Of a stretch of 32,000 bases of DNA, positions 1 to 24,142 are shown in pieces. The translations under genes and the position numbers were made by a program. Below the pieces are notes generated by a model. The model saw only the letters and a program-made list of their open reading frames with translations, did not search any database and was not told where the DNA came from. Location of the stretch: the NCBI RefSeq assembly GCF_000012905.2, contig NC_007493.2, positions 1,320,001 to 1,352,000 of the forward strand. The letters run 5' to 3'. Source of the DNA: Cereibacter sphaeroides 2.4.1. GTDB taxonomy: Bacteria; Pseudomonadota; Alphaproteobacteria; Rhodobacterales; Rhodobacteraceae. Position 1 is the stretch's first letter. Each line of letters opens with the position of its first letter.

Positions 1-275
1 CGGTCGCGCGGATCGAACCCGGCGGCGCCGAAGCCGTAGCCGCTCGCGGCATCCATTCCGCCGCCGGAAGAGCGGTCGCGCTCTGCCCCGCGCGCCTCGT
101 CCTGACCCCGGTCCTGATACCGGGCATCGAAGCGATCGCGATTGCGATCCTCGGGGCCGCCGCGCATGCGCGGGTCGTCTTCGCGGTTGCCCCGTGACCG
201 GTCGCCACCATAGCGCTGCATGTCGGCATCCTCGTCCCAGTTCCGGTTCCGGGCGTCAAATCTCGATTGTGCCAT
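1..275 (-). CDS. N-terminal part of an Arg/Asp/Gly-rich low-complexity (probably disordered) stress-type protein; continues beyond the window edge
   Basis: Not in the ORF track because it runs off the edge. Reverse-strand ATG at 275-273, preceded by GGAGGAGG (revcomp of 282-289) with a 6-nt spacer. The frame is open to position 1. My translation is MAQSRFDARNRNWDEDADMQRYGGDRSRGNREDDPRMRGGPEDRNRDRFDARYQDRGQDEARGAERDRSSGGGMDAASGYGFGAAGFDPRD... Third-position GC is high. The composition resembles small hydrophilic alphaproteobacterial stress proteins (possibly SWFGD-type); the family cannot be confirmed without the C-terminus. Confidence 0.6.
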   Translation of the reverse strand, partial: MAQSRFDARNRNWDEDADMQRYGGDRSRGNREDDPRMRGGPEDRNRDRFDARYQDRGQDEARGAERDRSSGGGMDAASGYGFGAAGFDPRD

Positions 276-341
276 GTCTGATCCTCCTCCGAGTTGCGCG
301 GGAGAGACGGCACGGTCTCCGCGTGTTGAAACGGCTCGGGA

Positions 342-366
342 AACGGACGGTCGAAGCGAATGTTCC
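342..366 (-). promoter_or_regulatory. Perfect EcfG-type promoter motif GGAAC-N16-CGTT (reverse strand) upstream of the Arg/Asp-rich gene
   Basis: The plus strand reads AACG (342-345), 16 nt, GTTCC (362-366). This equals GGAAC-N16-CGTT on the minus strand, and the -10 element ends 66 nt upstream of the ATG at 275. The consensus is known from alphaproteobacterial EcfG/SigT/RpoE2 regulons. Confidence 0.6.
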
Positions 367-586
367 CTCGCGGGCCGCGCGGCGGGGGCGGCTCCGGGCC
401 CGGGACAGCGACTGCCGTCAACCGCAGGCACGGTCTGCAACCTCGCATGTGCGAGTATGTCGAGCAGCCACAGCGCCCCGCGTTGCAAGGAGGAACGGCC
501 GGAGTGCCGGGACGGGGGAGGGAGCGGCGGCCTCTTCCCATGCAAGCGGCGGCTCGCATCCGGTCACTCTTCGGTGAAGGCTGAAG

Positions 587-612
587 GGAACCATCGGCGG
601 AGGCTCTGCATT
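587..612 (+). promoter_or_regulatory. Near-consensus EcfG-type promoter GGAAC-N17-CATT upstream of the small-protein pair
   Basis: GGAAC at 587-591, a 17-nt spacer, CATT at 609-612 (one mismatch to CGTT). It is about 60 nt upstream of the ATG at 673. Confidence 0.35.
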
Positions 613-672
613 GACGGCCAGAGAGCAGGAGCCGGCATCGGCTCTTTCCGAAAAAGTCGCAGAGGACTTCCC

Positions 673-846
673 ATGACCTCGTCAGTATCCCGGCCGCCGC
701 CGGGCCAGATGCCCGAGCCTCCCCCGGGCCCGGGTCCGGATGTAACGCCCGGCCCGCTGCCCGTCCCGGGCGAAAGCCCCGACCTGCCGCCGACCGAGCC
801 GGATCTTCCGGGCGGTCCCGGCGTCCCGCCGACCCTTCCCGTTTAA
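673..846 (+). CDS. Small proline-rich protein (57 aa), hypothetical
   Basis: This is the C-terminal part of track ORF 220..846. ATG at 673 is preceded by AGAGGA (661-666, 6-nt spacer). Sequence is MTSSVSRPPPGQMPEPPPGPGPDVTPGPLPVPGESPDLPPTEPDLPGGPGVPPTLPV with a TAA stop. Third-position GC is about 80%. No family was recognised, and Pro-rich frames can arise spuriously in GC-rich DNA. Confidence 0.4.
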   Translation: MTSSVSRPPPGQMPEPPPGPGPDVTPGPLPVPGESPDLPPTEPDLPGGPGVPPTLPV

Positions 847-880
847 TCGATCCTCTCGTCAACCTACCAAGGAGCTACCA

Positions 881-955
881 GTGAACAGCATCATTTATAT
901 CGTGGGCCTCGTGGTCATCGTCATTGCGATCCTCTCTTTCCTCGGCCTGCGCTGA
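881..955 (+). CDS. 24-aa hydrophobic single-TM peptide (MNSIIYIVGLVVIVIAILSFLGLR)
   Basis: Below the ORF-track size cutoff. GTG at 881 is preceded by a canonical AAGGAG (869-874) with a 6-nt spacer; TGA stop at 953-955. The peptide is an uninterrupted hydrophobic helix ending in Arg, typical of small stress-induced membrane peptides. Confidence 0.55.
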   Translation: MNSIIYIVGLVVIVIAILSFLGLR

Positions 956-1280
956 GGCAGGGGAACCGCCCTATCCGTGCCAGTGACCGGCGCCAAACTG
1001 CCGGAGACGAGTGTTCTATTGTCAGTGTTTGAGTAGCGAGTGACCGGGCCCTGCGACCATCGCGGGGCCTTCGGCGTTGAAGCCGACGGCCGCTCGGGAG
1101 GCTTGTTGCGAGACCTCCGGCACCGAGGCCACGGCCTAGTCAGGGAGGCTCGCTGCGAGGCTCCGAAAAGGATTTCGTCTGCTTGGCATGCGGATGGAAC
1201 CTTGGCCTTGTCCCTCACCTGAAAAAATCCACCGGCGTGGCGCGTGCCTGATGCGGTAGGCGCGACGCGGGCGGAAGACG

Positions 1281-1661
1281 TCAGCCTTGCAGCAGCTTGT
1301 CGAGCAGCGTTGCAAGAAGCACCGCCGTGACGGGCTTCTGGAGGACGTCGATCTGCTGGAACTGCTCCGGGATGGCATCCGCACTTTCGCCGGTCACGAA
1401 GGCGAAGGGGATCCCGCGCGTCCCGAGCGTGCGGGCGAGCGCGAAACAGGTGCCATCGTCGAGCCGCAGATCCAGAAGGGCCGCATCCACGGTCTGATGG
1501 GCGATCAGGCGCAGCGCCTCGGCTTCGGTCCGCGCCGGGCCGACCGTTTCGAACCCCGATGCCGTCAGCTCGTCCACCATCGTCATGGCGAGGATCAGAT
1601 CGTTCTCGGCCACGAGGATGCGGGGCAGTCCGGTTTTCGCGCCCGAGGCGGTCTGGGTCAT
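1281..1661 (-). CDS. Single-domain response regulator (receiver only), PFxFATG-like (FAT GUY type) variant
   Basis: Track ORF 1281..1688. The preferred start is ATG at 1661 (MTQTASG...), with GGAG 9 nt upstream. Receiver hallmarks present are the acidic pair in LVAENDLIL, the phospho-acceptor Asp in AALLDLRL, Thr in PFAFVTGE and Lys in LQKPV. There is no output domain. Confidence 0.85.
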   Translation of the reverse strand: MTQTASGAKTGLPRILVAENDLILAMTMVDELTASGFETVGPARTEAEALRLIAHQTVDAALLDLRLDDGTCFALARTLGTRGIPFAFVTGESADAIPEQFQQIDVLQKPVTAVLLATLLDKLLQG

Positions 1662-1688
1662 GGCGAAAATCTCCGTCGCTTTGCCCAC

Positions 1689-1714
1689 AAGGGTCCGTAA
1701 GGCGACATGGTTCC
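1689..1714 (-). promoter_or_regulatory. Weak EcfG-like motif GGAAC-N17-CCTT upstream of the receiver gene
   Basis: Plus-strand GTTCC at 1710-1714 and AAGG at 1689-1692. On the minus strand this reads GGAAC-N17-CCTT (one mismatch). The predicted TSS near 1682 would fit the ATG at 1661 and exclude the GTG at 1688. Confidence 0.25.
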
Positions 1715-1885
1715 CGTCTCGGCCCCGCTTTCGGCGCTTTTGCGCGGCCGGGATTCAGCAGGAGTCTCCCTTCTCCGGAGCCTGATGCGCGGGCGCGCCG
1801 AGGCTGCCTCGGTCGCGCGGACTGCCGTCGTTCGTACTCCTCGCAAATCGCATCCCTGCCTGCGGGACTGAAGCGCGCCCGCGGG

Positions 1886-1911
1886 GGAACGGTTCGGGTC
1901 CGCGGTACGTT
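1886..1911 (+). promoter_or_regulatory. Perfect EcfG-type promoter motif GGAAC-N17-CGTT upstream of mgtC-family gene
   Basis: GGAAC at 1886-1890, a 17-nt spacer, CGTT at 1908-1911. The ATG of the MgtC-family gene lies 60 nt downstream at 1972. Confidence 0.6.
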
Positions 1912-1971
1912 TGCCCGAGAGGCGGCGGCGGAGTTTCCGGTCAGACGCTCACGCTTGATGCATGGAATGAC

Positions 1972-2724
1972 ATGGCGGAATTGCTTCAGGACTTTCTCAG
2001 GCAAGACATCGCCCTGCCCATGATCAGCAGCCTCGTGACGGGGTTCCTGATCGGGCTCGACCGCGAGATCCGCGGCAAGCCTGCGGGCCTGCGGACCCAT
2101 GCGCTCGTCTGTTTCGCAGCGACGATTCTGACCCTCGCGGCGGCCCGGCAGGGGCAGTGGACGGTCGTCCTTCTTCCCGACACGCAGATCGTCGCCGACC
2201 CCGCGCGCATGGCGCATGGGATCCTGACGGGCATCGGCTTTCTCGGCGCGGGCGTGATCTTCCGGGAGGGGGCGTCGGTCCATGGGCTGACCACGGCGGC
2301 CTCGCTCTGGATCACCTCTGCCCTGGGGATCGTCTATGGGATCGGCATGTATTGGCTGGCCCTTGCCGGAACCGTTGTCACGCTCATCCTCCTCGTGGCG
2401 GTGCGGCTCATCCATGCGCGGCTTCCGGTGCGTACGGAGATCCGGCTGCGCGTGACGCTGCGGCTCGGGTCCAGCTTCGACGCCGAGCGGCTGACGGCGC
2501 TCCTGAACAGCAACGGGGTGGAGATCGGCGCCATCAGCCGCAGCCTGAGCCGGCCTTCCGAGCGGATGCGGCTCAGCACTGCCGTCCATGTCCGGCAGGA
2601 GGCCACGCTCGACCGGCTCGCCCGGGCGCTCACCGAAGAGCCGGACGTGCTGGCCTTCGATCTGATGCCCGTCGGCGATCCAGCCGGGCGCACCCTGTTG
2701 GACCGGACCGGCGACGCATCGTGA
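1972..2724 (+). CDS. MgtC/SapB family membrane protein
   Basis: 250 aa. The N-terminus is a hydrophobic MgtC domain (..LVTGFLIGLDREIRGKPAGLRTHALVCFAATILT.., GILTGIGFLGAGVIF, ASLWITSALGIVYG). It is followed by a soluble C-terminal domain, as in MgtC-family proteins. Confidence 0.9.
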   Translation: MAELLQDFLRQDIALPMISSLVTGFLIGLDREIRGKPAGLRTHALVCFAATILTLAAARQGQWTVVLLPDTQIVADPARMAHGILTGIGFLGAGVIFREGASVHGLTTAASLWITSALGIVYGIGMYWLALAGTVVTLILLVAVRLIHARLPVRTEIRLRVTLRLGSSFDAERLTALLNSNGVEIGAISRSLSRPSERMRLSTAVHVRQEATLDRLARALTEEPDVLAFDLMPVGDPAGRTLLDRTGDAS

Positions 2725-2911
2725 GCCAAAGGCCCGAGGGCCTGGCGGGATGCGCGATCCACCGGGTGCCGCTGTCGGCGGGGGAAAGTGCTCTGGCGCT
2801 CGTGCCGCACGGCTCGCGGCCCTTCAGGCGGATCGCGCCTGACATCCTCCCCGCCGCAGGCGGGTCAAGCCCGGGGGGCCGCGGAGGCGGATCCGGACGC
2901 CGTGGCCCGGA

Positions 2912-3166
2912 TCAGCCCGGCGCAATCCCGTCGCGCAGGCGGTCGGCCTCGTCGCGGATGCAGCGGATCTCCTCGGCAAGCGCCACTTCGATGCCGATGC
3001 CCGGTGCGGGCACGGCGCCGGGGTCCTCCTGATGGTCCTGCATGGTGCTGCGCTCGTCGAGCCAGTCGCGCAGCGCGTCGCTGCCTGCCAGCGCCACCAG
3101 GCGCGCCAGCACCTTGCGCTGCGCGATCAGCCGCCCCTCGATCGTGTCCGAAGTCAGTTCCGTCAT
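2912..3166 (-). CDS. Hypothetical 84-aa acidic helical protein, translationally coupled to ligD
   Basis: This is the C-terminal piece of the spurious track ORF 2912..4594. ATG at 3166-3164 overlaps the ligD stop (ATGA), and GGAGGG lies upstream inside the ligD 3' end. Sequence is MTELTSDTIEGRLIAQRKVLARLVALAGSDALRDWLDERSTMQDHQEDPGAVPAPGIGIEVALAEEIRCIRDEADRLRDGIAPG. Third-position GC is very high. No family was recognised. Confidence 0.7.
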   Translation of the reverse strand: MTELTSDTIEGRLIAQRKVLARLVALAGSDALRDWLDERSTMQDHQEDPGAVPAPGIGIEVALAEEIRCIRDEADRLRDGIAPG

Positions 3167-5769
3167 GGTTTCCCTCCTGCCACAAGTCGCTCGAGCCGCC
3201 CGATCACGGTCCGACCCAGTGTCGCGGGCCGGGCGGAGGCCTCGGCCAGCGGGCAGGGCCGGTCGAGCCGGTCGCGGATGGAGCGGATCGTCCAGTCGCC
3301 GCCCGACCGGGCCGAGGCGAGTTCGTCCCAGTCGACCGGCGTCGCCACCGGCGCGCCCGGGCGGGCGCGCAGGCTGTAGGGAGCGATCGCCGTCGAGCCG
3401 CGGTCGTTCCGCAGCCAGTCGATGAAGATCCGGCCCTTGCGCCCGGCCTTGGCCATCGTGGCCGTGTAGCGGTCGGGCGCCTCCTGAGCCAGATGGGTGG
3501 CGAGCGCCCGCGAGAAGAGCTTCACGCTCTCCCATTCGGCCTTGGGCTTCAGCGGCACGATCACATGCACCCCCTTGCCGCCGGAGAGCATCGGCACCGA
3601 GGGCAGGCCGAGGTCCGTGAGCAGACCGCGCAGCTCGGCCGCCGCGGTCCGCACATGGGCGAAGTCGAGACCCTCGTCGGGGTCGAGATCGAACACCAGC
3701 CGGTCCGGTCGCTGAAGGCTGCGGTTGCGCGAGCCCCAGATGTGGAATTCGAGTGTCCCCATCTGCGTGGCCCCGACCAGAGCCGCGACATCGGGCAGGG
3801 TGATGAAATCCTCGGGCCCCGATTTCGTCTCGACGGGCACCGTCTTCATCGCGACGGGCATGCCGCGGGTGCGGTGCTTCTGGAAGAAGCACTCCGCCGC
3901 CGCCCCTTCCGGGCAACGCAGGAGCGAGACGGGACGATCCTTCAGGAAGCGCAGCATCCGCGGCGCCAGTGCCTCGGCATGCTCCGCCACCTCGCGCTTC
4001 GTGACGGCGGGCCGGTCGTAGATCCGCCGGTCGGGGTGGCTGATGCGGATGCCTGCGACGCGCAGGTCGTCGGGTCGGGCCATCGTCGTCTCCTTCTTCT
4101 CCCCGCGCGCCGTCCGGGGTTTCCGGGCAGGCTCGGGGGCGGGCTCGTCGGGTGAGGGGGCGTCTGGCCGGGCCGTCTTCGTCCCCTTCTTCCGCACGCC
4201 CGACTTCCGGGGCGCGGGCGTTTCGGGCGCGGGCTCCTCGAGCCGCACCTCCCGCGCGTCCTTGTCGCTCCGCAGGCCGGCGAAGACCCCGTGCCGGATG
4301 TGCCCCTCCGCCGTCAGTTCGGTGAAGCTCACCTCGGCCACCAGCTCGGGCTTCAGCCAGTGCGCCCCCTTGGCCTCGGCCGGCGTGCGGTCGAAGGGGC
4401 AGGCGCTTTGCGCCCGTTCGGCCAGAAGCGGCTTCAACTCGCGGAACAGGGGGGCGCCGAAGCCGCTGCCGACACTGCCGCGGTAGACCAGACGGCTCTT
4501 TTCGTAGCTGCCCATCACCAGCGAGGCGAAGGGACGGCCCGGCTTGTCCGAGGCGTTCCAGCCGCAGATCACGAATTCCTGCCGGTGCGCGCATTTCACC
4601 TTCAGCCAGTCGCCGTTCCGGCTGCCCGCATAGGGCGCGGAGGCCCGCTTCGAGACGATCCCTTCAAGGCCCGCTGCGCATATGCGCTCGTGCACCTCGG
4701 GGCCGTGGCCGCGGATGTGGCCCGAGAAGCGCACCGCGCCGCGCCCCTTGCCGATCAGCGTCTTGAGCCGCTCCTTCCGCGCGAGAAGCGGCTGTCCGGT
4801 CAGGTCCTCGCCGTCGAGGAGCAGCAGGTCGAAGGTCATGAAGAGGAGCTGGCCCCCCGATTTCAGCCGTGCCTGCAGCTCGGAGAACGAGCCGCCCTCC
4901 CGGCCCGGCGCGATCACCTCGCCGTCGATCAGCGCCTCCTGGGCCTCAAGCGCCTCGACATCCTCGACGAGGGCGCCGAACTTGGCCGTCCAGTCGAGGC
5001 CGGAGCGGGTGTAGAGGCGGGCCCGACCTCCGGCGAGGGCCGCGAGGCAGCGGTAGCCGTCGAACTTGGTCTCGTGGATCCAGTCCTCGCCCTCGGGCGC
5101 CGCCGAAACGAGGCGCGCGAGCTGGAGCGGCCGGAAGGCGGGCAGGGCAGCCTGGCGCGTGCGCCGCGGTGGCGCCTTGCCGGCGGCGATCTGCTCCATG
5201 GTCCGCCCCGTTGCGACCGAGGTCATGTGCCGCTCGACCAGCTCCTCGGTCTGCTCGCTTTCATGCGTGTCGTGCTCCTTGATGAGGAGCCAGTTCTCGG
5301 CCTTCTCGCGCGGCCTGGGTTTCATGCGCACCAGCGTCCAGCGGCCGCGCATCCGCTCGCCCGCGAGGCGGATCTTGAGCTGACCGGTGCGCAGCCCCTC
5401 CGCAAAGTCGCCCTGCGGTTCCCAAGTGCCCCGGTCCCAGAGCATGACCGTGCCGCCGCCATATTCGCCCTTGGGGATCGTGCCCTCGAACTCGGCATAA
5501 TCCAGCGGATGATCCTCGGTTCGCACCGCAAGCCTGCGGGCGGACGGATCGGGCGAGGGGCCGCGCGTCACGGCCCAGCTCAGCAGGACACCGTTCCACT
5601 CCAGCCGGAAATCCCAGTGCAGACGGGAGGCTGCATGTTTCTGCACGACGAAGGACAGGCTCTCCGCCTCGGGGCGCGGCGCCTCGGAACGGCCCTGCGG
5701 CTCGGGCGTGCGCGCGAAGTCGCGCTTGGCGCGGTAGCGGTCGAGATCCTGTCGCGGGTTGGCGGGCAT
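3163..5769 (-). CDS. ligD: ATP-dependent DNA ligase LigD, three-domain (phosphoesterase - ligase - polymerase/primase) NHEJ enzyme
   Basis: Track ORF 3163..5904. The N-terminal 3'-phosphoesterase signature is FVVQKHAASRLHWDFRLE..WAVTRGPS. The central ligase carries the adenylation motif ETKFDGYR. The C-terminal LigD polymerase domain shows FHIWGSR, VFDLDP and GGKGVHVIVPL. The start is chosen at ATG 5769 (MPANPRQDLDRYRAKRDF..) because AGGAG lies 6 nt upstream. The alternative ATG at 5790 has no SD and sits at the predicted TSS of the promoter at 5795-5819. Confidence 0.9.
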   Translation of the reverse strand: MPANPRQDLDRYRAKRDFARTPEPQGRSEAPRPEAESLSFVVQKHAASRLHWDFRLEWNGVLLSWAVTRGPSPDPSARRLAVRTEDHPLDYAEFEGTIPKGEYGGGTVMLWDRGTWEPQGDFAEGLRTGQLKIRLAGERMRGRWTLVRMKPRPREKAENWLLIKEHDTHESEQTEELVERHMTSVATGRTMEQIAAGKAPPRRTRQAALPAFRPLQLARLVSAAPEGEDWIHETKFDGYRCLAALAGGRARLYTRSGLDWTAKFGALVEDVEALEAQEALIDGEVIAPGREGGSFSELQARLKSGGQLLFMTFDLLLLDGEDLTGQPLLARKERLKTLIGKGRGAVRFSGHIRGHGPEVHERICAAGLEGIVSKRASAPYAGSRNGDWLKVKCAHRQEFVICGWNASDKPGRPFASLVMGSYEKSRLVYRGSVGSGFGAPLFRELKPLLAERAQSACPFDRTPAEAKGAHWLKPELVAEVSFTELTAEGHIRHGVFAGLRSDKDAREVRLEEPAPETPAPRKSGVRKKGTKTARPDAPSPDEPAPEPARKPRTARGEKKETTMARPDDLRVAGIRISHPDRRIYDRPAVTKREVAEHAEALAPRMLRFLKDRPVSLLRCPEGAAAECFFQKHRTRGMPVAMKTVPVETKSGPEDFITLPDVAALVGATQMGTLEFHIWGSRNRSLQRPDRLVFDLDPDEGLDFAHVRTAAAELRGLLTDLGLPSVPMLSGGKGVHVIVPLKPKAEWESVKLFSRALATHLAQEAPDRYTATMAKAGRKGRIFIDWLRNDRGSTAIAPYSLRARPGAPVATPVDWDELASARSGGDWTIRSIRDRLDRPCPLAEASARPATLGRTVIGRLERLVAGGKP

Positions 5770-5794
5770 CGGCGGCTCCTGACGGCTCATGGGG

Positions 5795-5819
5795 AACGTG
5801 ACGGAGCGGGGACAGTTCC
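5795..5819 (-). promoter_or_regulatory. Perfect EcfG-type promoter motif GGAAC-N16-CGTT (reverse strand) upstream of ligD
   Basis: The plus strand reads AACG (5795-5798), 16 nt, GTTCC (5815-5819). The -10 element ends about 25 nt upstream of the ATG at 5769. Confidence 0.65.
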
Positions 5820-6036
5820 TGAGACCGCGGGCGCTCGGCAGGGGATAGACCGGGTCACGGCCTTGGCAGGGCGCGCAGGTGGGTCGCCATGAACCGGCCC
5901 GCAACGCATGTCAGAGCAGCGCCAGTGGTCTCCGCGACCGGGCCTCGCGGACCCTGCCCGCGACAGGACCCACCGCCGTTCAGCCACGCCGGTGTGGCTG
6001 CCCGATCATTTGCTAAGAAAATAATGCGGCGGTGGA

Positions 6037-6062
6037 GGAACCTCGGGAACCGAGAGCGTGTT
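6037..6062 (+). promoter_or_regulatory. Near-consensus EcfG-like motif GGAAC-N17-TGTT preceded by an AT-rich patch
   Basis: GGAAC at 6037-6041, a 17-nt spacer, TGTT at 6059-6062 (GTT retained, one mismatch). A strikingly AT-rich stretch, atcatttgctaagaaaataatg (about 6006-6027), sits just upstream like an UP element. A second GGAAC occurs at 6046-6050. Confidence 0.3.
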
Positions 6063-6162
6063 CCCCCTGCGATGTGGGGCAGCTCGGGCAGAAGCAATGG
6101 ACAGTCGCGACAGCGGATTTCAGGGCGTGGCACGGGTTCCGGGGGGCGCCCGGAGACCGTCC

Positions 6163-6507
6163 ATGTCTCCGGCCGCAGGCGAGACGGATCGCCATCAGCC
6201 GGAGGACCGCCTCAGAGCCCCGATTGTGCCCTTGTCAGCCGACCCTGGCAGGAATGCCACAGCCGCAGCCGAGGCGGGAACCAATGGCGGCCAGGATGCT
6301 TGTGATGCGACAGTCACAAGACAAGAACCTGAGGCCATGTTTCATTTCATGCAAGATGGCCAGGGCGACGACCTGGTCAACCGACATGTCGAGGACAATC
6401 TTCGACGAACCTATGCCATATCGGCCGCCGATGAACCGATCGACGACCGGTTTGCCACGCTCCTGAAGCGTATCGCCGCGAAGCAGGCTCAGTCAGGCCG
6501 CAGCTGA
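6163..6507 (+). CDS. NepR-type anti-sigma factor-like protein (NepR motif at C-terminus)
   Basis: Same frame as track ORF 6058..6507. The C-terminal VEDNLRRTYAISAADEPIDDRFATLLKRIAAKQ matches the NepR signature (LRxxY...EP[ILV][PD]xRFxxLLxx[IL]). The start is uncertain. ATG 6163 has the best SD (GGAGA, 6-nt spacer). ATG 6337 would give a 56-aa NepR-sized protein but has a poor SD. Third-position GC is only about 60-67%, so coding statistics are weak and the call rests on the motif. Confidence 0.5.
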   Translation: MSPAAGETDRHQPEDRLRAPIVPLSADPGRNATAAAEAGTNGGQDACDATVTRQEPEAMFHFMQDGQGDDLVNRHVEDNLRRTYAISAADEPIDDRFATLLKRIAAKQAQSGRS

Positions 6508-6539
6508 CGGGCGCGGCCCGCTGCCGGTGGCGGCTGCAT

Positions 6540-6755
6540 TCAGATGTCCTGCTCCTCACGGACATCCGAACCGGGAAGCAGGACGGGCTCTGCGCATGCC
6601 TGCATCCTGAGGGCCATCGCCAGGCGCCGTGCGAGGATCTGGATCGGCTCGGGCACAGGCTCGGCCTCGAGGGCCCGCAGCAGTTCCTCGCTCAGTTCGC
6701 AGAGTTCGTCCCGTGCGGCGGGCGCACCGTCGTGATCCTGGTCGTTTATCATCAT
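6540..6755 (-). CDS. Small acidic protein (71 aa) with a second NepR-like motif, divergent from the ECF sigma gene
   Basis: Track ORF 6540..6812. The preferred start is ATG 6755 (MMINDQDHDG..), with AAGGGG 8 nt upstream. Third-position GC is about 79%. The segment LSEELLRALEAEPVPEPIQILARRLAMAL resembles the NepR EP[VLI]PE...L..L core, but it lacks the Tyr and the spacing is shorter. Confidence 0.45.
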   Translation of the reverse strand: MMINDQDHDGAPAARDELCELSEELLRALEAEPVPEPIQILARRLAMALRMQACAEPVLLPGSDVREEQDI

Positions 6756-6814
6756 GTCACCTGCCCCTTGTCGCCCTTTCTGCGACGAGCCGGCCGGGAG
6801 TGCAATCTCCAAGC

Positions 6815-6839
6815 GGAACCCGCCCGGTCAGGCGGCGTT
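6815..6839 (+). promoter_or_regulatory. Perfect EcfG-type promoter motif GGAAC-N16-CGTT upstream of the ECF sigma gene (autoregulation)
   Basis: GGAAC at 6815-6819, a 16-nt spacer, CGTT at 6836-6839. This is 44 nt upstream of the GTG start at 6883. Positive autoregulation is typical of EcfG-family sigma factors. Confidence 0.7.
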
Positions 6840-6882
6840 GATTTCGGAAAACGAAGGCGTGAAGAGCCAGGGAGAGCCGCCC

Positions 6883-7389
6883 GTGACGGATCAGACCCCA
6901 CCGCGATCGATCATACCGGATGTGGTCGATCTCATTCCGGCCCTGCGGGCCTATGCGCGCTCGCTCAGCCGCAACCAGTCCGACGCAGACGATCTCGTGC
7001 AGGAGACGCTTCTCAAGGCCATCGCCAATGTCGACAAGTTCCAGCCGGGCACGCGGCTCCGCGCCTGGCTCTTCACCATCCTGCGCAACACCTTCTACAC
7101 CCGCATCCGGGTCTCGGCCCGCGAGCGGACGGGGGCGGCCGACTGCGTCTCGGGCGAGATGTCGGTGCAGCCCTCGCAGGAATGGACGGTGCGGGGGCGC
7201 GAGCTGATGGCCGCCATCGACCGGCTGCCGCCGCATTACCGCGAGATCCTCATCCTCGTCGTCATGCTGGGCGAGAGCTATGAAGAGGCCGCCCGGATCT
7301 GCGACTGTGCCATCGGCACGGTGAAGAGCCGGGTCAGCCGCGCGCGACAGCTGGTGATGAACGATCTCGAAGGCACCGGAGAGGCCTGA
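6883..7389 (+). CDS. ECF RNA polymerase sigma factor, EcfG-like (ECF15-type general stress sigma)
   Basis: Track ORF 6754..7389. The preferred start is GTG 6883 (VTDQTPPRSIIPD..), with GGGAGAG 6 nt upstream and downstream of the promoter motif. Region 2 reads LRAYARSLSRNQSDADDLVQETLLKAIANVDKFQPGTRLRAWLFTILRNTFY. Region 4 reads YREILILVVMLGESYEEAARICDCAIGTVKSRVSRARQ. The region 2 sequence is very like EcfG/SigT/RpoE2 proteins. Confidence 0.9.
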   Translation: MTDQTPPRSIIPDVVDLIPALRAYARSLSRNQSDADDLVQETLLKAIANVDKFQPGTRLRAWLFTILRNTFYTRIRVSARERTGAADCVSGEMSVQPSQEWTVRGRELMAAIDRLPPHYREILILVVMLGESYEEAARICDCAIGTVKSRVSRARQLVMNDLEGTGEA

Positions 7390-7558
7390 GAGGATCATCA
7401 TATCCGCACAGTTCACGGCCATTGCCTGCCCATCCCCGCCTTGGCCTCACGGTGCCTGCGGGCCCGGAGGGCAGTGGCCTTCTGCGGCAGCCCGGGCGCG
7501 GTCGGCTGCTCCCGCATCGCGGAAAGCGGGGCGGAAGCGCGCAGCCCGGACCCTGCGA

Positions 7559-7587
7559 TTGCACGGCCCCCGGCGCCGGGGTATGTG
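7559..7587 (+). promoter_or_regulatory. Candidate sigma-70 promoter for fabD (TTGCAC-N17-TATGTG)
   Basis: -35 TTGCAC at 7559-7564, a 17-nt spacer, -10 TATGTG at 7582-7587. The SD GAAGGAG lies at 7604-7610 and the ATG at 7619. The spacer contains a perfect 14-bp palindrome ccccggcgccgggg (7568-7581). Confidence 0.3.
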
Positions 7588-7618
7588 CCTTTGCCAAGGA
7601 AGAGAAGGAGATCCGACC

Positions 7619-8551
7619 ATGAGCCGCGCATTCGTGTTCCCCGGGCAGGGCGCTCAGACCATCGGCATGGGCCGCGCGCTCGCCGAAGCCTATCCTGCGG
7701 CGCGGGCGGTATTCGACGAGGTGGACGAGGCGCTCGGCGAGAAACTCTCGGCGCTGATCTGGGACGGATCCATCGAGGAGCTCACGCTGACGCAGAACGC
7801 GCAGCCCGCGCTGATGGCGACCTCGATGGCGGCCCTCGCGGCGCTCGAGGTCGAAGGCCTGGGCATCGCCACCGCCTCCTTCGTGGCGGGTCACTCGCTC
7901 GGCGAATATTCCGCCCTGTGCGCGGCGAAGTCGCTGAAGCTCTCGGATACGGCGCGGCTTCTGCGCATCCGCGGGCAGGCCATGCAGGAGGCGGTGCCGG
8001 TGGGCGTGGGCGCGATGGCCGCGCTCCTCGGGCTCGATTACGACACCGCGGTCGAGGTCGCGCACGAGGCGGCGCAGGGCGAAGTGTGCCAGGCCGCCAA
8101 CGACAACGATCCGGCGCAGGTGGTGGTCTCGGGCCACAAGGCGGCCGTCGAGAGGGCAGTGGAGATCGCCAAGGGCCGCGGCGCCAAGCGGGCCATCCTG
8201 CTGCCGGTGAGCGCCCCCTTCCATTGCGCACTGATGCAGCATGCCGCGAGCGTCATGTCCGAAGCTCTCGCCGCGGTGGTGATCGAGGCGCCGGTCTGCC
8301 CGGTCGTCGTGAACGTGCGCGCCGAGGCGGTGTCGGAGCCGGACCGGATCCGTGCGCTCCTCGTGGCACAGGTGACGGGGGCCGTCCGCTGGCGCGAGAG
8401 CGTGATGTGGATGGAAAATGCGGGCGTGGACGAGTTCTGGGAAATCGGTGCCGGCAAGGCGCTGTCGGGCATGATCAAGCGGATCGCCAAGGGCGCGGCG
8501 ACCCGGGCCATCGGCACGCCCGAGGATGTGGCGGCTGCCGCCACGGCCTGA
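7619..8551 (+). CDS. fabD: Malonyl-CoA:ACP transacylase
   Basis: MSRAFVFPGQGAQTIGMG.., the active-site motif GHSLGEYSAL, and VSAPFHCALM. ATG at 7619 follows GAAGGAG. The track ORF 7559..8551 includes an N-terminal overextension. Confidence 0.95.
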   Translation: MSRAFVFPGQGAQTIGMGRALAEAYPAARAVFDEVDEALGEKLSALIWDGSIEELTLTQNAQPALMATSMAALAALEVEGLGIATASFVAGHSLGEYSALCAAKSLKLSDTARLLRIRGQAMQEAVPVGVGAMAALLGLDYDTAVEVAHEAAQGEVCQAANDNDPAQVVVSGHKAAVERAVEIAKGRGAKRAILLPVSAPFHCALMQHAASVMSEALAAVVIEAPVCPVVVNVRAEAVSEPDRIRALLVAQVTGAVRWRESVMWMENAGVDEFWEIGAGKALSGMIKRIAKGAATRAIGTPEDVAAAATA

Positions 8552-23494: not shown

Positions 23495-24142
23495 TTGAGC
23501 AACCCCGAGAGTTTCATCGACGAGGTGACCGAGGAGGTCCGCCGCGAACGGCTGTTCGGCTATTTCCGGCGCTATGGCTGGATCGCGCTCGTCGCCGTGA
23601 TCGCCCTCGTGGGCGGTGCCGCCTACATCGAATGGCAGAAGTCGCAAGACGCCGCAGAGTCGCAGGCCTTCGGCGACGCGATCCTTGCGGCCCTCGAGGC
23701 GCCGGATGCGGCGGCCCGTCGGGCGGCGGTGGCCGCCATTCCGGCCGAGGGCGCGCGTGCCGCGCTGCGGGATCTGATGGTGGCCTCCGATCCGGCCGCC
23801 GATCGCGCGGCCTCGCTCCGCGCGCTCGAAGGCGTGGCTGCGAACGCCACGCTCGATCCCGCGTTCCGCGACCTTGCGGTGCTGCGCCGCGTGATCCTTG
23901 CCGGGGCGGAGATGCCGGTGGCCGACCGCCGTGCCGCGCTCGATGAGATTGCAGCGCCGGGCCGGCCCTACCGCACGCTCGCGCTGGAGCAGATGGCCTA
24001 TCTGGACGTCGAAGCGGGCAAGCCCGCCGAGGCCATCCAGACGCTGCGCAACCTCGTGCAGGACCAGGAGGCGACGCAGGGCCTGCGCCGGCGCGCCGAA
24101 CAGATGATCACCGCTCTGGGCGGCGACACCCAGGCCGGCTGA
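23495..24142 (+). CDS. YfgM-like TPR membrane protein (upstream partner of bamB/der)
   Basis: 215 aa. The apparent TTG start at 23495 follows GAGGGAGAGG. It has the conserved N-terminus SFIDEVTEEVRRERLF followed by one TM helix. The position before bamB-der matches the conserved yfgM-bamB-der synteny. Confidence 0.8.
   Translation: MSNPESFIDEVTEEVRRERLFGYFRRYGWIALVAVIALVGGAAYIEWQKSQDAAESQAFGDAILAALEAPDAAARRAAVAAIPAEGARAALRDLMVASDPAADRAASLRALEGVAANATLDPAFRDLAVLRRVILAGAEMPVADRRAALDEIAAPGRPYRTLALEQMAYLDVEAGKPAEAIQTLRNLVQDQEATQGLRRRAEQMITALGGDTQAG

Follow-up and report, generated by a model that had tools for sequence, protein, structure and literature searches.

The DNA considered here is a window of 32,000 nucleotides (nt) from Cereibacter sphaeroides 2.4.1, mapped onto chromosome 1 of that species, and its subject is the gene cluster RSP_2675-2681, whose rightmost member, RSP_2681, encodes a sigma factor of the extracytoplasmic function (ECF) type. 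Most units of this cluster stand behind perfect or one-mismatch copies of GGAAC-N16/17-CGTT, the promoter motif of the PhyR-NepR-EcfG stress response. Position 1 of the window corresponds to position 3119 of L086 (CP015287.1), and the two sequences are essentially identical. Because the G+C content of the window is about 70%, genes were called from the G+C content of the codon positions, and their starts were inspected by eye. Locus tags were inferred from the consecutive protein accessions of strain 2.4.1 and from two papers in which ligD is named RSP_2679. The following genes are present.

1-275, minus strand: 5′ part of a gene for a BON-domain (OsmY-like) protein of 303 amino acids (aa), probably RSP_2675, which crosses the left edge of the window
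673-846, plus strand: Pro-rich open reading frame (ORF) of 57 aa, 56% identical to the ORF at the same position in Cereibacter changlensis
881-955, plus strand: gene for a 24-aa hydrophobic membrane peptide, with a GTG start and an AAGGAG ribosome-binding site
1281-1661, minus strand: RSP_2676, single-domain receiver of 126 aa (Pfam Response_reg), SdrG-like
1972-2724, plus strand: mgtC, RSP_2677, MgtC/SapB family (Pfam MgtC, E = 1e-36)
2912-3166, minus strand: RSP_2678, ORF of 84 aa whose ATG overlaps the ligD stop codon (ATGA)
3163-5769, minus strand: ligD, RSP_2679, three-domain ligase of non-homologous end joining (NHEJ) by Pfam and NCBIfam
6337-6507, plus strand: NepR-like gene of 56 aa, without annotation in 2.4.1, with a weak match to Pfam NepR
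6540-6755, minus strand: RSP_2680, 71 aa, divergent from the sigma gene
6883-7389, plus strand: RSP_2681, ECF sigma factor annotated as 'RpoE', of the EcfG family

A pattern search of the window for GGAAC-N16/17-CGTT returns exactly five perfect matches. They are those reported by a sequence-only reading of this DNA, which had placed four of them in the first 7.4 kb and one at a distance, antisense within a gene.

342-366, minus strand: GGAAC-N16-CGTT, 66 nt from its -10 element to the BON start codon
1886-1911, plus strand: GGAAC-N17-CGTT, 60 nt to the mgtC start codon
5795-5819, minus strand: GGAAC-N16-CGTT, 25 nt to the ligD start codon
6815-6839, plus strand: GGAAC-N16-CGTT, 43 nt to the start codon of the sigma gene RSP_2681
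23843-23867, minus strand: fifth perfect match, antisense within a 248-aa gene of no known family, just upstream of bamB

All four cluster sites are found on the coding strand of the gene that they serve, at the 25-66 nt from the start codon that had been claimed for them. The genes served had been named correctly for mgtC, ligD and the ECF sigma factor, whereas the supposed 'Arg/Asp-rich protein' behind the first site is the N-terminus of the 303-aa BON protein, which is Arg/Asp-rich and disordered. In 100 dinucleotide-preserving shuffles, the mean number of perfect matches per window was 0.23, and none of the shuffles reached five; at this background rate, a genome of a few Mb would contain some 30 perfect matches by chance. 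Within the first 7389 nt, four sites were observed against 0.053 expected (Poisson P(≥4) = 3e-7). The match at 23843-23867 is probably due to chance. When sites with at most one mismatch are considered, on the correct strand and no more than 150 nt upstream, they precede six of the eight transcription-unit starts in the cluster (seven of the eight if the long NepR start at 6097 is taken) and none of the 21 window gene starts outside the cluster, which served as controls (Fisher p = 6e-5). The observation that nearly every unit of the cluster carries such a motif is confirmed, RSP_2680 being the one cluster unit that lacks an EcfG-type motif. A scan of positions 1-8000 for sigma-70 consensus promoters found none.

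The four perfect sites were compared among six C. sphaeroides/johrii strains, including the C. johrii-like L082, which has only 7% of sampled 40-mers in common with the window. At each of the four sites, neither GGAAC nor CGTT changes in the six strains, while the spacers vary, the sigma promoter alone having four different spacers. In C. changlensis (L001), whose sigma factor is 86% identical to that of the window, the whole module is kept, with unchanged gene order between the Pro-rich ORF and the sigma gene, and blastn aligns only the coding DNA. Perfect sites are present there before mgtC, ligD and the sigma gene, and the orthologue of the BON promoter reads GGAACATTC..-N16-TGTT (L001 2654-2678). 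The core elements are thus kept at orthologous positions, in the six strains and in C. changlensis, while the spacer drifts. C. changlensis also carries a transglutaminase-like gene between ligD and the NepR-like gene (L001 7753-8680), which is preceded by GGAAC-N16-GGTT. The gap 5820-6336 of the window was considered as a remnant of this gene, and no similarity was found.

One-mismatch matches are frequent, with 19 in the window, and for this reason a single such site means little. Those of the cluster, together with one variant element, are listed below.

587-612, plus strand: GGAAC-N17-CATT, 60 nt upstream of the Pro-rich ORF
1689-1714, minus strand: GGAAC-N17-CCTT, 27 nt upstream of the receiver gene, the weakest site
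6037-6062, plus strand: GGAAC-N17-TGTT, mirrored on the minus strand by GGAAC-N17-GGTT, the whole element spanning 6037-6064
6277-6302, plus strand: variant element GGAAC-N17-CTTG, 34 nt before the 56-aa NepR-like gene

The three one-mismatch sites had been described correctly, but they are unequal. The CATT deviation is shared by C. changlensis, where GGAAC-N16-CATT (L001 2768-2792) lies 58 nt before the Pro-rich orthologue. The receiver site is conserved within the C. sphaeroides strains, and its C. changlensis orthologue, GGAAC-N17-CGTC, keeps the -35 element alone. The site at 6037-6062 had been assigned to the NepR-like ORF; it does lie 34 nt before an ATG at 6097 (a frame of 136 aa), but the conserved 56-aa form, which is the one usually annotated, starts at 6337, 274 nt away, the element at 6277-6302 is closer, and no equivalent of the site occurs before nepR in C. 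changlensis. The closer element is invariant among the strains and has the same arrangement in C. changlensis, so it is possibly a weak or variant promoter. It has been reported that EcfG motifs of Sphingomonas melonis are enriched within 100 bp of coding starts, and that its EcfG-dependent promoters include the -10 variants CATT (listed in Table 1 of that study), TGTT, GGTT and AGTT (PMC6599016).

The site at 6037-6062 falls within positions 6006-6130, the part of its intergenic region in which conservation among the strains is highest. This block contains an AT-rich tract and two copies of GGAAC, and it is followed by 240 nt without insertions or deletions between diverged strains. The frame opened by the ATG at 6097, which continues into the NepR-like gene, is free of stops in all strains compared. 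In 6097-6336 the G+C content of codon position 3 is 0.64, and the substitutions relative to L082 number 10, 15 and 22 at codon positions 1, 2 and 3, a pattern on which the long NepR form is probably non-coding. The segment may serve as a long 5′ leader or a small RNA, or encode a rapidly evolving N-terminal extension of NepR.

The domains of the sigma factor are Pfam Sigma70_r2, Sigma70_r4_2 and PhyR_sigma2 (58 bits), and its closest solved relative is 5UXX chain A (E = 1.6e-35), whose partner, chain B, was deposited as 'Anti-sigma factor NepR'. By this relative and the PhyR_sigma2 match, RSP_2681 is classed as an EcfG-family (ECF15) sigma factor, as the sequence-only reading had proposed. With a perfect motif in its own promoter, it would be autoregulated. 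The protein is encoded identically on many C. sphaeroides and C. johrii assemblies, and orthologues are found at 65-69% identity across the Paracoccaceae; perfect motifs precede the orthologous sigma genes of L001, L087, L089 and L091. In Paracoccaceae bacterium Fryx2, the orthologue is located 1.3 kb from a complete phyR-nepR-ecfG-HWE kinase locus, so that an RSP_2681-type sigma and a canonical EcfG occur side by side, both behind perfect motifs; the Fryx2 orthologue is 50% and RSP_2681 itself 49% identical to that canonical EcfG. It is on this comparison that RSP_2681 is taken to be a second EcfG paralogue. The canonical phyR-nepR-ecfG-kinase module of C. sphaeroides, RSP_1274-1271, is encoded elsewhere in the genome, and RSP_2681 has been mentioned as a gene that 'was also annotated as RpoE', with no role in stress responses reported (PMC5830050).

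Two small proteins next to the sigma gene resemble NepR. The 56-aa ORF, whose positional counterpart in C. changlensis is 49% identical to it, matches Pfam NepR (PF18557) with E = 2.4e-4 and 21.1 bits, below the curated cut-off of 25.7 bits; a canonical NepR scored 51.9 bits in the same run. RSP_2680 has no Pfam match at E up to 10. However, an 11-member alignment of its family, compared with ten canonical NepRs by hhalign, gave a probability of 63% (P = 7e-5) over 25 columns centred on EPVPE. Homologues of RSP_2680 were recovered only from Cereibacter relatives by a word-index search, and an exhaustive profile search added six more small proteins that share its core. This core, LLrAIeAEPVPE..LA..Lq.AL, recurs in a small divergent ORF that adjoins the orthologous sigma gene in five of six Paracoccaceae loci (L001, L087, L088, L089 and L091); the genomes concerned are C. 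changlensis, Falsirhodobacter, Plastorhodobacter, Pseudotabrizicola and Fryx2. Searches of the sequences of solved structures with the 56-aa and 71-aa proteins returned nothing useful. RSP_2680 is regarded as a candidate anti-sigma factor, probably NepR-like and highly diverged.

SdrG-like 'FAT GUY' single-domain regulators are characterized by the motif PFxFATG[G/Y]. For the receiver RSP_2676, the best solved relative is SdrG (5IEB; E = 2e-13), the single-domain regulator in the stress phosphorelay of Sphingomonas, and the segment IPFAFVTGES aligns with IPFVFATGGS of SdrG, PFAFVTGE departing from the motif at two positions.

LigD combines a phosphoesterase, an ATP-dependent ligase and a primase-polymerase in one protein (Pfam LigD_N, DNA_ligase_A_M/C and LigD_Prim-Pol), and it matches NCBIfam NHEJ_ligase_prk (PRK05972) with E = 3.5e-187 and 951 bits against a cut-off of 895. 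Its promoter, at 5793-5819, is palindromic (GGAAC-N15/16-GTTCC): the minus strand reads the perfect GGAAC-N16-CGTT and the plus strand GGAAC-N16-AGTT. The palindrome is retained in all strains compared and in C. changlensis. Downstream of it on the plus strand, nothing obvious is encoded in C. sphaeroides. The same face-to-face geometry is seen in the divergent phyR / nepR-ecfG promoters of L091 (12639-12670). Through the ATGA overlap, RSP_2678 is predicted to be translationally coupled to ligD, and its homologue also adjoins ligD in C. changlensis. Other homologues are found in Rhizobium leguminosarum (L066 4658-4879) and in Pseudotabrizicola (L089 11302-11610), where the gene stands alone behind its own perfect EcfG-type motif. 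No Pfam family matches RSP_2678, and it looks like an independent small stress-protein family without a Pfam model.

The extent of the cluster is larger than the 7.4 kb assigned to it by the sequence-only reading: the cluster is real, but it continues for about 3 kb beyond the left edge of the window (L086 1-3118). This extension comprises the rest of the BON gene (in full at L086 2482-3393; Pfam BON, E = 6e-20), followed by genes for a 264-aa low-complexity secreted protein, a PRC-barrel protein and a pyrroloquinoline quinone (PQQ)-dependent dehydrogenase. A perfect motif at L086 412-437 (minus strand), upstream of the dehydrogenase gene, is the fifth perfect site of the cluster, and GGAAA-N17-CGTT occurs at L086 1214-1239 (minus strand) upstream of the PRC-barrel gene. 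PQQ or sugar dehydrogenases also adjoin the orthologous sigma gene in L087, L088 and L089. On the right, the sigma gene is followed by fabD and then by unrelated housekeeping genes. Base composition and the called genes were examined for signs of horizontal acquisition: the G+C content is 0.65-0.71 in the cluster and 0.64-0.74 in the remainder of the window, and none of the called genes was found to encode an integrase. On these two counts nothing suggests horizontal acquisition. As composition is ordinary and no integrase is among the called genes, the term 'island' used for this DNA is apt solely in the sense of a gene cluster.

Motifs, placement, conservation and protein families are direct observations, and together they make it likely that at least eight transcription units (RSP_2675-2681 and three genes left of the window) are transcribed from EcfG-type (ECF15) promoters around a second EcfG paralogue. 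The regulatory genes would then be RSP_2681, the two small NepR-like proteins and the SdrG-like single-domain receiver. The protective genes would be those for the BON/OsmY-like protein, the PRC-barrel protein, the PQQ dehydrogenase, MgtC, LigD with its 84-aa partner, the Pro-rich ORF and the 24-aa membrane peptide. The claim of a physical cluster that unites the regulator with much of its regulon is accepted as far as an EcfG-family sigma factor and motif-bearing genes do cluster, but it is overstated, as the master module RSP_1271-1274 lies elsewhere. 'EcfG-type regulon cluster' is a safer name than 'general stress island'.

The choice of sigma factor at the promoters, the inducing signals and all protein-protein interactions are inferred from the mechanism of the family. 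The partner-switch model of PhyR-NepR-EcfG is summarised in two papers (PMC5830050 and PMC6599016). Applied to the cluster, it would begin with the phosphorylation of PhyR (RSP_1274, encoded elsewhere) by stress kinases. Phosphorylated PhyR would capture NepR-type anti-sigma factors, and the freed EcfG (RSP_1272), RSP_2681 or both would direct RNA polymerase to GGAAC-N16/17-CGTT promoters. As RSP_2681 stands behind such a promoter, it may form a self-amplifying second tier of the response. The co-induced NepR-like proteins would exert negative feedback, and the SdrG-like receiver may modulate signalling. Both positive and negative feedback are expected within the cluster because RSP_2681, a NepR-like gene and the SdrG-like receiver gene all sit behind EcfG-type sites.

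Several points weigh against this reading. Elements of the -35 type GGAAC are common to several ECF groups, and for this reason promoter specificity rests on the -10 element and on the sigma family. The NepR assignments of both small proteins are under curated thresholds. phyR and an HWE kinase are absent from the RSP_2681 locus, where only NepR-like genes are adjacent. Two of the one-mismatch sites are weak, that of the receiver (CCTT) and that at 6037, which is also far from the conserved NepR start. In the searchable papers and supplements, neither transcription start sites nor mutant expression data were found for the cluster genes. The relevant public values found are for ligD alone: in a growth-phase microarray, its mRNA changed by a log2 of -0.06 at 28 h and -0.09 at 72 h, and rose in outgrowth only (+0.56; PMC6509803, supplement 4). 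A desiccation/stationary-phase survival role had been suggested for the gene set, by analogy only; with no rise of ligD mRNA at 28 h or 72 h, the stationary-phase label is unsupported for that condition. A further table, for an stsR mutant, shows ligD weakly expressed and lower in the mutant, and has no bearing on EcfG.

Among the alternatives, chance in G+C-rich DNA is practically without weight. One perfect match, antisense within a gene, is probably of this kind, but four matches in 7.4 kb (P ~3e-7), consistent in strand and distance and conserved across species at orthologous positions, have already refuted such an origin for the rest. It is very improbable that the motifs belong to another ECF group using a GGAAC -35 element instead of the EcfG system. 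Such elements are common among ECF sigma factors, but the cluster sigma is EcfG-like and has the motif in its own promoter, NepR-like and SdrG-like genes lie within the cluster, and the canonical nepR-ecfG promoter of a related genome carries the identical motif. A narrower objection is that function is restricted to the perfect sites: those at 587, 1689 and 6037, with one mismatch each, would be chance matches, and their units would use other promoters. The 19 one-mismatch matches of the window favour this objection, as do the receiver site, whose CCTT breaks the best-conserved GTT, and the 6037 site, with its 274 nt to the conserved NepR start and no counterpart in C. changlensis. However, the chance of a site with at most one mismatch is about 0.04 per 100-nt strand window, yet three of the four remaining units have one, and no control gene start does. 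In addition, C. changlensis retains the CATT variant at the same distance, promoters proven to depend on EcfG include examples with CATT and with TGTT (PMC6599016), and the 6037 site belongs to the best-conserved block of its intergenic region. The objection taken as a whole is thus considered unlikely.

An autonomous local circuit is a further rival, also fairly unlikely. Here the promoters would be read by RSP_2681 alone, held by the divergent RSP_2680 and released by a signal of its own, independently of PhyR and the canonical EcfG. The sigma gene and its small divergent ORF are indeed kept as a pair in five of six Paracoccaceae loci, usually with no phyR in the vicinity; no EcfG motif precedes RSP_2680, as expected of a constitutively made anti-sigma factor; and the phenotypes of a phyR mutant are narrow (PMC5830050). 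Conversely, in Fryx2 the orthologous pair lies 1.3 kb from the phyR-nepR-ecfG-HWE kinase locus, with the same perfect motif before both sigma genes. The two sigma factors, at about 49-50% identity, are likely to share promoter recognition, and the alignment of the RSP_2680 family to the conserved NepR core (EPVPE...L..L) makes capture by PhyR plausible. A bolder proposal can be put forward only tentatively, and it is rather doubtful: RSP_2681 and RSP_2680 may form a distinct Paracoccaceae-wide 'EcfG2' module, with an unrecognised family of diverged NepR-like proteins (58-75 aa) as cognate anti-sigma factors, and this module, not the canonical EcfG, may be the main driver of the clustered stress genes, NHEJ included, in C. 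sphaeroides. Such a driver would account for the narrow phenotypes of the phyR mutant.

With a second-tier EcfG paralogue as the preferred reading, the cluster can be compared with known systems. Secondary EcfG paralogues include Caulobacter SigU, the multiple EcfG and NepR proteins of Methylobacterium extorquens and the RpoE5/RsiA2 pair of Sinorhizobium meliloti. RSP_2681 resembles them in standing behind an EcfG-type promoter away from phyR and, presumably, in adding a second tier to the same response. It differs from them in being part of a Paracoccaceae clade (identities of 65-69% between orthologues and of 49% with canonical EcfG) which has its own small divergent ORF without a Pfam family. 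EcfG paralogues of M. extorquens and S. meliloti are documented in one study, whose reference list also contains two paralogous Caulobacter ECF sigma factors (PMC6599016).

The cluster shares several features with the PhyR-NepR-EcfG response, as known from EcfG/SigT/RpoE2 regulons. GGAAC-N16/17-CGTT is found within 100 nt of coding starts, an EcfG-family sigma gene stands behind its own motif, and NepR-like small proteins and an SdrG-like receiver are encoded. BON, PRC-barrel, LigD and small secreted or membrane proteins are typical targets of EcfG regulons. Unlike canonical loci, the cluster has no phyR or HWE/HisKA_2 kinase gene, these being part of RSP_1271-1274 elsewhere (PMC5830050). In addition, neither NepR-like gene shares a transcription unit with the sigma gene: RSP_2680 diverges from it, and the 56-aa gene converges on RSP_2680. 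Motif clusters around ecfG genes are common: loci of Mesorhizobium, Aminobacter, Filomicrobium and Roseicyclus have 8-10 perfect motifs per 20 kb, and in Pseudotabrizicola (L089) the surroundings of the orthologous sigma gene have four perfect sites within 6 kb. Given these clusters and the secondary paralogues of other Alphaproteobacteria, the arrangement is already known in kind, and the general picture of the alphaproteobacterial stress response is unchanged. The least ordinary element is the RSP_2680 family, whose small proteins are encoded beside this sigma clade and may represent a NepR variant, linked to the clade, that has escaped recognition.

The location of ligD behind an EcfG-type box recalls the RpoE2-controlled NHEJ genes of S. 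meliloti (ku3-ku4 and ligD4), for which EcfG control of ligD and ku has been experimentally established (PMC6379672), and would imply stress-inducible end joining. In contrast to S. meliloti, the ku gene of C. sphaeroides (RSP_0524) is elsewhere in the genome, ligD is coupled to the 84-aa gene, and the promoter is palindromic with a plus-strand half-site. Two published puzzles may find an account here. For a phyR mutant of C. sphaeroides, the only sensitivities reported are those to UV in the dark and to membrane stress (PMC5830050), a pattern that fits the placement of ligD and envelope genes under EcfG-type control. NHEJ appeared inactive in growing C. sphaeroides cells (PMC7183636), an observation of importance for genome editing, which fits its expression under stress only. 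Literature searches for RSP_2675-2681 brought up no more than a passing reference to RSP_2681, papers that mention ligD, and a hit for RSP_2675 in a CRISPR interference (CRISPRi) study. The analysis thus offers a likely function and a candidate regulon for RSP_2681, a protein previously without a known role.

Some minor features of the DNA may be added. An Rfam scan of positions 1-8000 (E up to 1) gave no match. The single terminator-like hairpin found, at 6820-6835, lies within the spacer of the sigma promoter and is not conserved in other strains; it was rejected as incidental. A non-coding gap of 325 nt (956-1280), with no Rfam match and no consensus terminator, separates the convergent genes for the 24-aa peptide and the receiver. 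The 24-aa peptide gene differs from its C. changlensis counterpart by ten substitutions, eight of them at codon position 3 and none at position 2, a pattern that points to strong purifying selection. The peptide is almost never annotated, and its exact sequence is present once in the protein collection.

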